A DNA stretch of 64,000 nt from Spirochaetia bacterium (GTDB lineage Bacteria; Spirochaetota; Spirochaetia; G963692905), in assembly GCA_965261245.1 (NCBI GenBank), contig OZ253446.1:1233300-1297299 (forward strand), given 5' to 3'. The position numbers were made by a program, and so were the translations under genes. Every line of letters starts with the position of its first letter. Position 1 is the stretch's first letter. Below are positions 35,914 to 36,904 of this stretch, in pieces. The notes beneath the pieces were generated by a model. It was not told the origin of the DNA. It did not search any database and saw only the letters and a list, made by a program, of their open reading frames with translations.

Positions 35914-36904
35914 TTACTGGCATACAAAACTGCTACACATCCCACTGACACAATCGCTATTATTACCGCAAGCAGTGCCGGCCGTCCCATCGGTGCATAG
36001 ATTGCGGATACAACCATAATCGCACTGGCTACTGCTACTACAAGGGCTACCGGCACTGCCATCGGTTGCCGTGCATACCTGACTACCGGACACATTGACA
36101 CATATCAAATTAGTATCACAATGACTACTTCTACTGCAAACACTACCCGCACTGCCATCACCGGCGGCCGTGCATACATCATTGCGGGACACACGCACAC
36201 ATATCAAATTAGTATCACAATCGTTAACATCGAAACACGCACTGCCCGCACTGCCATCACCGGCGACCGTGCATACAAAACGATCGGACACAGCGGCACA
36301 TATCAAACCAGTAGCACACTGGCCGACAGCGCAAGCACCGCCGGCGACTATCTTGCCGCATGCGCCGGCATTACATACTAGCGGACTGCTACAATGGCTA
36401 TGGGTACCGCATACACTATCGGCCATACCATCACCGGCGGCACTGCATACCTGGCTACCGGTTGCACCGGTGCATATCAAATCAGTATCACAATCACCAT
36501 CAGCAACACAAGCACCGCCGGCGGCTACCTTGCCGCATACTCCGCTACCGCACACTAGCGGACTGCTACAATGGCTATCGATACCGCATACACTATCGGC
36601 CATACCATCACCGGCGGCACTGCATACTCGGCTACCGGCTGCACCGGTGCATATCAAATCAGTATCACAATCACCATCAGCAACACAAGCACCGCCGGCA
36701 GGTGTTTTGCTGACGCTGCCATTACCCCCGCTACTGCTGCTGCCAGTATCACAACCGGCCAAAATCATCACAACCGCCAGCACTCCGGCCGTTGCTATTA
36801 CGCCGCGTAGGCGTTTCCTACTCGCTAAAGAGCGATAATCTCTCTCTCTCTCTCTCTCTCTCTCTCTCTCTCTCTGCGAGTGTATTAAACAATTGTATAT
36901 TCAT
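35914..36904 (-). pseudogene. Cys-rich tandem-repeat lipoprotein, out of frame at a 5' (GA)18 tract (phase-OFF candidate)
   Basis: ATG 36904 plus 10 codons are identical to the neighbouring paralogue. A(GA)18 then shifts the frame. The body ORF 35914..36783 carries the lipobox and 8-Cys modules. Total length is 991 nt, not divisible by 3. Confidence 0.75.
36839..36875. repeat. Dinucleotide repeat (TC)18T, equal to A(GA)18 on the coding strand
   Basis: Counted directly from the sequence. Confidence 0.95.

Follow-up and report, generated by a model that had tools for sequence, protein, structure and literature searches.

A candidate slipped-strand phase switch in a cysteine-rich lipoprotein gene of a poorly sampled lineage of Spirochaetota

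Bet-hedging by chance switching is found in the pathogens Helicobacter pylori, Neisseria and Treponema pallidum. Here we describe a candidate element of this kind in a stretch of 64,000 nucleotides (nt) from a Spirochaetia bacterium (GCA_965261245.1, contig OZ253446.1, positions 1,233,300 to 1,297,299), referred to below as the window. A (GA)18 tract lies ten codons into a gene for a cysteine-rich (Cys-rich) lipoprotein at 35914..36904 on the minus strand, hereafter the tract gene, and leaves its start codon out of frame with its body. We consider it probable that this tract acts as a slipped-strand translational phase switch, now OFF and one unit short of ON, beside a paralogue that is fixed ON. 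Such a switch would be of a known kind, here in a new and poorly sampled host lineage.

The closest functional analogue appears to be the non-homologous oipA of H. pylori, together with related genes. CT repeats in the 5' region of oipA that encodes the signal peptide switch the gene ON and OFF by slipped-strand mispairing, and sabA and babA are named beside oipA/hopH among the repeat-bearing outer-membrane protein genes of H. pylori (PMC10564699). As in oipA, a dinucleotide repeat (CT/AG there, GA/TC here) occupies the signal-peptide-coding 5' region, where slippage would shift the frame. Likewise, OFF alleles stop early, ON alleles would differ only within the cleaved signal peptide, and both states coexist among strains. 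On the other hand, the Hop proteins are beta-barrel porins and adhesins of the Campylobacterota, whereas the predicted product here is a Cys-rich lipoprotein with a lipobox in the Spirochaetota; the two share no homology, and Pfam and NCBIfam scans returned only the Cys-rich families Dickkopf_N and DUF7107. The tract is also longer here, at 18-20 units against patterns of 5-11 CT in both ON and OFF alleles of oipA (PMC10564699). Switching of oipA has been demonstrated experimentally, whereas the switch here is a proposal drawn from sequence.

Within the same phylum, poly-G tracts phase-vary outer-membrane protein genes of T. pallidum and lie in the promoters of tpr genes (tprE/G/J and tprL) and of TP0126 (PMC7864442), and a review counts the species among those with large repertoires of repeat-mediated phase variation (PMC11868660). 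There too the genes encode envelope proteins, and repeat length varies within and between strains (PMC7864442). The T. pallidum elements are promoter homopolymers that act on transcription, whereas the repeat described here is a dinucleotide within an open reading frame (ORF) and would act on that frame; a C21/C9 tract belonging to a third paralogue of the family, discussed below, directly resembles the T. pallidum poly-G tracts. No coding dinucleotide switch in a spirochaete surfaced in a limited literature search, which is no proof of absence. A further likeness exists with the variable lipoproteins of Mycoplasma (vlp of M. hyorhinis), in which a conserved 5' region comprising promoter and prolipoprotein signal carries a hypermutable repeat, the mature regions behind it are divergent and repetitive, and paralogues are switched independently. 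In vlp, a promoter poly-A tract rather than a coding dinucleotide repeat acts as the switch, and the proteins are unrelated.

Tract, reading frames and start region

The first-pass annotation of this locus had described an ATG at 36904 opening the peptide MNIQLFNTLA, with the same ten codons as the neighbouring paralogue, followed by A(GA)18 at 36839-36875. Translation of the minus strand between 34700 and 37200 in three frames, together with a listing of simple repeats, matched that description in full (Table 1). The two genes share an exact 34-nt leader, ATGAATATACAATTGTTTAATACACTCGCAGAGA, of which the window has two copies in all, at 36871-36904(-) and 35772-35805(-), against 0 occurrences expected from shuffles. 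Directly after MNIQLFNTLA, the A of codon 10 (GCA) and 18 GA units give the minus-strand reading A(GA)18, for which Tandem Repeats Finder reports a period of 2, 18.5 copies and 100% matches. This is the sole dinucleotide run of more than five units in the 64 kb, where independent and identically distributed bases would yield an expectation of ~2e-17.

From the ATG at 36904, translation yields MNIQLFNTLA(ER)6LSLFSE-stop, a peptide of 28 codons; as annotated, lipobox and 289-codon body belong to another frame. This frame, one base on (+1) after the tract, continues as ...DYRSLASRKRLRGVIATAGVLAVVMILAGC and then as an unbroken Cys-rich body to a TAA at 35914-35916. The distance from ATG to stop is indeed 991 nt, which is not a multiple of 3. 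When the tract was exchanged in silico for n = 1-26 units, a full-length product of 318-334 amino acids (aa) arose only at n = 1 mod 3, and products of 15-32 aa otherwise; n = 16, 19 and 22 gave 328, 330 and 332 aa, in agreement with the earlier proposal that one GA unit gained or two lost would restore the frame. Both OFF frames end 5-7 codons past the tract (...EIIAL-stop or ...LSLFSE-stop). The paralogue obeys the same rule with n = 4, and its frame continues to the lipobox to give an intact prolipoprotein whose signal peptide ends ...VMILAGC. The 5' part of the ORF holds a simple repeat whose unit is not a multiple of 3 nt, and changes in its unit number toggle in silico between the full-length ORF and early termination.

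Table 1. Features of the tract gene and its paralogues in the window (plus-strand coordinates)
Feature	Position	Strand	Basis
Promoter-like site: -35 TTGACG (36953-36948), 17-nt spacer, extended -10 TG-n-TAACAT (36930-36925)	36925..36953	-	consensus scan, 9/12 matches, TG present
Shine-Dalgarno AAGGAG, 8 nt before ATG 36904, within a short (GA)4 run	36913..36918	-	sequence and alignment
Start codon and codons 1-10 (MNIQLFNTLA), same as in paralogue	36875..36904	-	exact 34-nt match at two sites
(GA)18 tract, (TC)18 on the plus strand followed by T at 36875; proposed hypermutable element	36839..36874	-	Tandem Repeats Finder
TAG closing the 28-codon ATG-frame peptide, present OFF state	36818..36820	-	three-frame translation and in-silico length scan
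Remaining predicted prolipoprotein signal peptide, +1 frame: (D)YRSLASRKRLRG-VIATAGVLAVVMI-LAGC; lipobox LAGC at 36762-36751	36751..36838	-	frame-1 translation
Intact 289-codon body from internal GTG 36783; small disulfide-rich modules, 177-nt and 99-nt internal repeats	35914..36783	-	ORF and repeat listing
Intact paralogue with A(GA)4 (tract 35768-35775), 320 aa, directly downstream, same strand	34843..35805	-	ORF and repeat reading
C21 tract (G21 on plus) in 5' cassette of third Cys-rich lipoprotein paralogue, 17726..19075(-)	19240..19260	-	repeat listing and cassette alignment

In the restored frame the GA units are read as Glu-Arg pairs upstream of an RKRLRG charge cluster, a hydrophobic core and the LAGC lipobox. 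The resulting segment, ...SRKRLRG-VIATAGVLAVVMI-LAGC, comprises a charged n-region, a hydrophobic h-region and a lipobox of the pattern [LVI][ASTVI][GAS]C, and the YRSLASRKRLRG-VIATAGVLAVVMI-LAGC portion also occurs in the intact paralogue and in protein P0001. By this pattern, the product of the tract gene is a predicted lipoprotein and a putative substrate of Lgt and LspA. Upstream, the sigma-70-like promoter architecture of the tract gene is repeated in front of the paralogue; taken whole, the scanned region shows no enrichment relative to shuffles, and the promoter of the tract gene is a prediction. With its promoter-like site and AAGGAG motif, the tract gene looks ready for expression but for its frame.

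Could the protein be made irrespective of tract length, either by (re-)initiation at GTG 36783 or by transcriptional or ribosomal slippage on the GA run? The GTG does lie in the body frame, 35 nt past the TAG that stops the leader peptide, and long repeats can promote slippage of RNA polymerase. It is, however, the only internal start, since after the tract the body frame has no ATG, GTG or TTG before this codon; GGAG directly adjoins it at a spacing of ~1 nt, which leaves no usable Shine-Dalgarno site, and its product would begin MLAVVMILAGC, a poor Sec or lipoprotein signal lacking the positively charged n-region. On account of the missing Shine-Dalgarno spacing and charged n-region, GTG 36783 was set aside as a start, and tract-independent expression from it is unlikely. 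No frameshift-stimulating motif is evident, and slippage on dinucleotide runs is not, to our knowledge, an established route of expression. We therefore regard tract-independent production of the protein, by either route, as very improbable.

A plus-strand function for (TC)18 was also rejected, the plus-strand ORFs there being mirror-frame artefacts of the Cys-rich repeats. The homopurine/homopyrimidine mirror repeat formed by the tract could additionally hinder transcription in a length-dependent manner.

In the phase switch that we propose, replication slippage on the 36-nt homopurine/homopyrimidine tract would alter n by whole units. The gene would be ON at n = 1 mod 3 (16, 19, 22) and OFF at all other n, with translation ending within the few codons noted above. 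Signal peptidase II would cut off the signal peptide, whose n-region contains the tract, between LAG and C. As in lipoprotein processing generally, removal of the signal peptide would leave tract length without effect on the mature protein, and in-frame changes in length would only add or remove Glu-Arg pairs in the discarded segment. The paralogue with (GA)4 would be effectively fixed ON, such that cells would always carry one family member and show the second stochastically.

Alleles, constraint and the weighing of readings

Comparison contigs L003 (= L008), L006 and L007, all from one ENA metagenome assembly (ERZ26694059) and, going by contig names, of 1.5-5x coverage, were reached via exact-protein look-ups of neighbouring genes. 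Gene order is the same in these contigs and the window: priA, a 100-aa gene (38215..38517 in the window), a repeat lipoprotein, the tract gene, the paralogue, def and fmt. Flank identity to the window is 94.4-97.6%, an indication that the window and the contigs derive from different strains of one species-level population.

Comparison of the tract among these related genomes, a check put forward with the first-pass annotation, distinguishes three forms. The window allele, CTCGC-A(GA)18-TTATCGCTCTTTAGCGAGT, is OFF with a product of 28 aa. The L006 allele, CTCGCGC-A(GA)20-TTCTAGCTCTTTAGCGAGT, is also OFF (25 aa) and would be expected to turn ON at 18 or 21 units. In L003 (= L008) and L007 the allele reads CTCGCGC-A(GA)4-AT-AGG, a 19-nt segment after the tract having been deleted, and the gene is ON (314 aa). 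Tract length is in this way polymorphic among close relatives (18, 20, and 4 with the 19-nt deletion), the relatives being low-coverage contigs. The paralogue also has the 19-nt segment lost in L003 and L007, which points to the loss as the derived state, and the short alleles seem to have arisen by deletion of the tract, with the frame held ON thereafter. The paralogue carries A(GA)4 in the window, L003 and L006, three of the four loci; in L007 it has AGC-A(GA)3 with one extra C.

In L007 the paralogue (8669-8760) reads CTCGCAGC-A(GA)3 and is out of frame, and def (9930-10489) is split into two 99-aa ORFs. Both are probably low-coverage indel errors, with a real frameshift at the GA run of the paralogue as a possible alternative. 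Gene callers missed the L003 orthologue of the tract gene and called the L006 orthologue short; proteome catalogues therefore under-report the family.

The contrast between long and short tracts and the presence of a long tract in two independent assemblies can be trusted. The exact counts of 18 and 20 are provisional, and the difference between them is less secure than that between long and short. It is conceivable that the tract is real and long but was miscounted through an error of sequencing or consensus, with an actual or modal length of 19 or 16 and the gene ON in most cells. Sizing a long dinucleotide run from long reads is difficult, the window's location in a single 2.34-Mb contig suggests a long-read assembly, and the related assembly has indel problems (the split def in L007, and C8 versus C10 upstream of def). 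We nevertheless think such a miscount improbable. In the window, long ORFs contain homopolymers of 7-9 nt and yet remain unbroken, so that its consensus appears well polished and of good indel quality, and the independent contig L006 is also out of frame. Furthermore, the long tract at the same site in L006, an independent assembly, makes a pure assembly artefact less likely. A miscount of units would change the inferred current state only, and leave the nature of the element the same.

The bodies of the tract gene were codon-aligned and compared by Nei-Gojobori estimates of synonymous (dS) and nonsynonymous (dN) divergence. The window and L006, both OFF, differ by dS 0.075 and dN 0.034 (dN/dS 0.45), and the ratio is 0.31 for the window versus L003 and 0.29 for L006 versus L007. 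The ORF downstream of the tract is intact in both OFF alleles, with 295 codons free of stops and frameshifts, a one-codon in-frame indel only, and every Cys kept. These values suggest that the bodies of OFF alleles are under purifying selection, a pattern in keeping with a gene that is being maintained and is OFF only for a time. The body of L006, which has a long tract, is nearer to that of L007, which has a short one (dS 0.025), than to that of the window; tract state therefore does not track divergence, and may have changed faster than point divergence or have moved by recombination.

The same comparisons bear on whether the tract gene is instead a decaying duplicate, that is, a recently inactivated pseudogene redundant with its paralogue, in which the GA tract is a neutral microsatellite and any slippage has no adaptive consequence. 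The intact paralogue 108 nt downstream of the tract gene and a dN/dS that implies only moderate constraint would accord with decay, as would the OFF state of both long-tract alleles and the deletion of the tract in the only functional ones, which could mean that selection removes it. Yet the two OFF alleles have diverged independently while keeping an open body; nothing is broken in the promoter, ribosome-binding site (RBS) or leader, which match those of the paralogue almost exactly; and a second family member also has a long variable repeat. Moreover, random phasing would make four of nine allele pairs both OFF, so that two OFF alleles are no evidence for decay. On balance we judge decay unlikely.

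Several observations nonetheless weigh against a phase switch. The two alleles with a long tract are both OFF and share the +1 frame (6 nt apart), no long-tract ON allele occurs among the four loci, and the only ON alleles (L003/L008 and L007) have lost the long tract. The comparison contigs likely contain indel errors at their low coverage, as in the split def and the extra C of L007, and the count of 20 is perhaps one unit off. A dN/dS below 1 could date from selection before a recent inactivation. Length variation within one clone and its reversibility are, for their part, presumed in the switch reading.

We favour the phase switch on the strength of the tract with its frames and stops, the differences in length between strains, the constrained bodies of OFF alleles and the second long repeat in the family. 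To this we add, by inference, a high rate of slippage, reversibility within a clone, export and lipidation of the product, and a selective benefit. The interpretation as a contingency locus in the first-pass annotation gains support from the between-strain differences in tract length, the intact OFF bodies and the short tract of the paralogue in three of four loci, and at the level of sequence the element would qualify as such a locus. If the switch works, this spirochaete would vary its Cys-rich lipoproteins by chance slippage and not by regulation, and frame-based dinucleotide switches would extend to the Spirochaetota. The disulfide-rich lipoprotein family would then probably face variable selection, for example from host immunity, phage or predators.

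Other variable repeats and 5' cassettes

The C21 tract of the third paralogue lies ~165 nt upstream of its ATG and ~100 nt downstream of a promoter, within a 5' region spanning 19076-19420, and the orthologous site in contig L005 (9830-9838) has C9. This tract is probably a second phase-variable element within the family, two of whose three members in the window carry an unusually long repeat in the 5' region. The cassette containing it is made up of a near-perfect TTGACA-17-TATAAT promoter, CTTA and C(n) ~100 nt later, a leader of ~165 nt, an RBS and a MYNIIRT signal peptide. It occurs again at 57700-58060(+), with C9 at 57867-57875, before an unrelated fn3/DUF4959 lipoprotein whose signal peptide ends VIAGC and whose start is probably ATG 58042 (the ORF listing begins at 57981). 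The cassette suggests a portable expression module common to different lipoprotein genes.

More tentatively, and with slightly less than even confidence, we suggest that this uncultured spirochaete lineage possesses a multi-locus phase-variable gene set built from portable 5' cassettes placed before partly unrelated lipoprotein bodies. Cassette A would consist of the promoter, RBS, MNIQLFNTLA leader and coding (GA)n tract. Cassette B would consist of the TTGACA-17-TATAAT promoter, poly-C, ~165-nt leader and MYNIIRT signal, and would stand before both the Cys-rich paralogue and the fn3/DUF4959 protein. If true, the Spirochaetota would gain their first described frame-based switch of the dinucleotide type, with switchable 5' modules shuffled between surface-protein genes.

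Two shorter repeats around the tract gene and its paralogue also differ among strains. The GA run in the RBS spacer (window 36908-36915; L003 3935-3946; L007 upstream of 7616) has one unit more in the tract-deleted ON strains (AAGGAGAGAGAGAAATATG versus AAGGAGAGAGAAATATG), which changes the spacing from Shine-Dalgarno to ATG by 2 nt. The second is a tandem repeat of 21 nt at 34695-34771 (minus strand CAGTCTACGGTCTTTCGCATT), located between the paralogue and def. It has three full copies in the window, two in L006 and L007, and one in L003, and is on that account a minisatellite of variable copy number.

Protein family, host lineage and neighbouring loci

For the product of the tract gene, matches in Pfam are marginal. 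Pfam DUF7107 scores 25.0 bits for the tract gene (cut-off 24.6) and 32.5 bits for the third paralogue, and Dickkopf_N scores 22.2-24.9 bits (cut-off 25). NCBIfam had no match for the three Cys-rich proteins and reached two neighbouring lipoproteins only far below cut-off, and PADLOC gave no match. An AlphaFold2 model of the protein predicts a string of small beta-hairpin, disulfide-rich modules, with a mean predicted local distance difference test score (pLDDT) of 78.7 from only 6 sequences. A profile search of PDB placed Dkk1 at E = 0.33, and Foldseek against PDB found nothing below E = 0.06, with Dkk at E = 0.09-0.37; by sequence and fold, the best local resemblances in PDB are sub-threshold and comprise Dickkopf, colipase, knottin-like and EGF-like folds.

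An exhaustive profile search recovered 435 representative proteins at E <= 1e-3, many of them long and multi-repeat with lipoprotein-type N-termini. A scan of a genome collection with the paralogue returned, among the matches listed, only two distant deltaproteobacterial ones (34-37% identity). In JGI metagenomes a 29-nt leader had no match, and the three distant loci recovered there with a family profile say nothing about the tract. Exact-protein look-ups of the paralogue, Def, P0127 and the L006 and L007 gene products gave no match.

In two proteins of other organisms, the Cys-rich module is fused to further domains: to HYANNLWVAVG-type repeats in P0131 and to a DxDxDG...NMRYNL domain in P0137. 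The repeats of these fusion partners sit, in the window, in separate neighbouring lipoproteins (37038..38132(-), 19434..20738(-) and 20778..26818(-)). The domain fusions suggest a functional link between the gene families.

Relatives of Def are at most 51% identical, with the exception of P0005, a strain-level relative (99%) encoded on the L003 contig, and the next-best relatives of a MalK-like protein are at most 80% identical. Named relatives are metagenome-assembled genomes labelled Rectinemataceae, Treponema sp., Spirochaetaceae, Marispirochaeta and Sphaerochaetaceae, the best of them at 50-68% identity. The host is a poorly sampled member of the Spirochaetota. A related contig carries a TatT-DctP-DctQM transporter, a type typical of treponemes.

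Elsewhere in the window, the tandem lipoprotein paralogues 20778..22724(-) and 22884..25031(-) have near-identical N- and C-terminal thirds and divergent middles (repeats at 22337-22586 and 24443-24692), with a third, more distant copy at 24986..26818. A (CT)5 run lies ~115-130 nt upstream of each of the first two (22846-22855 and 24948-24957). The only Rfam hit is a tRNA of 88 nt at 49018-49105(+), which adjoins a GmrSD-type restriction endonuclease gene at 49112..50818(-) (Pfam GmrSD_N and GmrSD_C); the pair may mark the edge of a defence island. The intergenic region 7731-8040 contains an 88-nt repeat (2.3 copies, with C7-C8 runs) followed by a 19-nt repeat in 4 copies.

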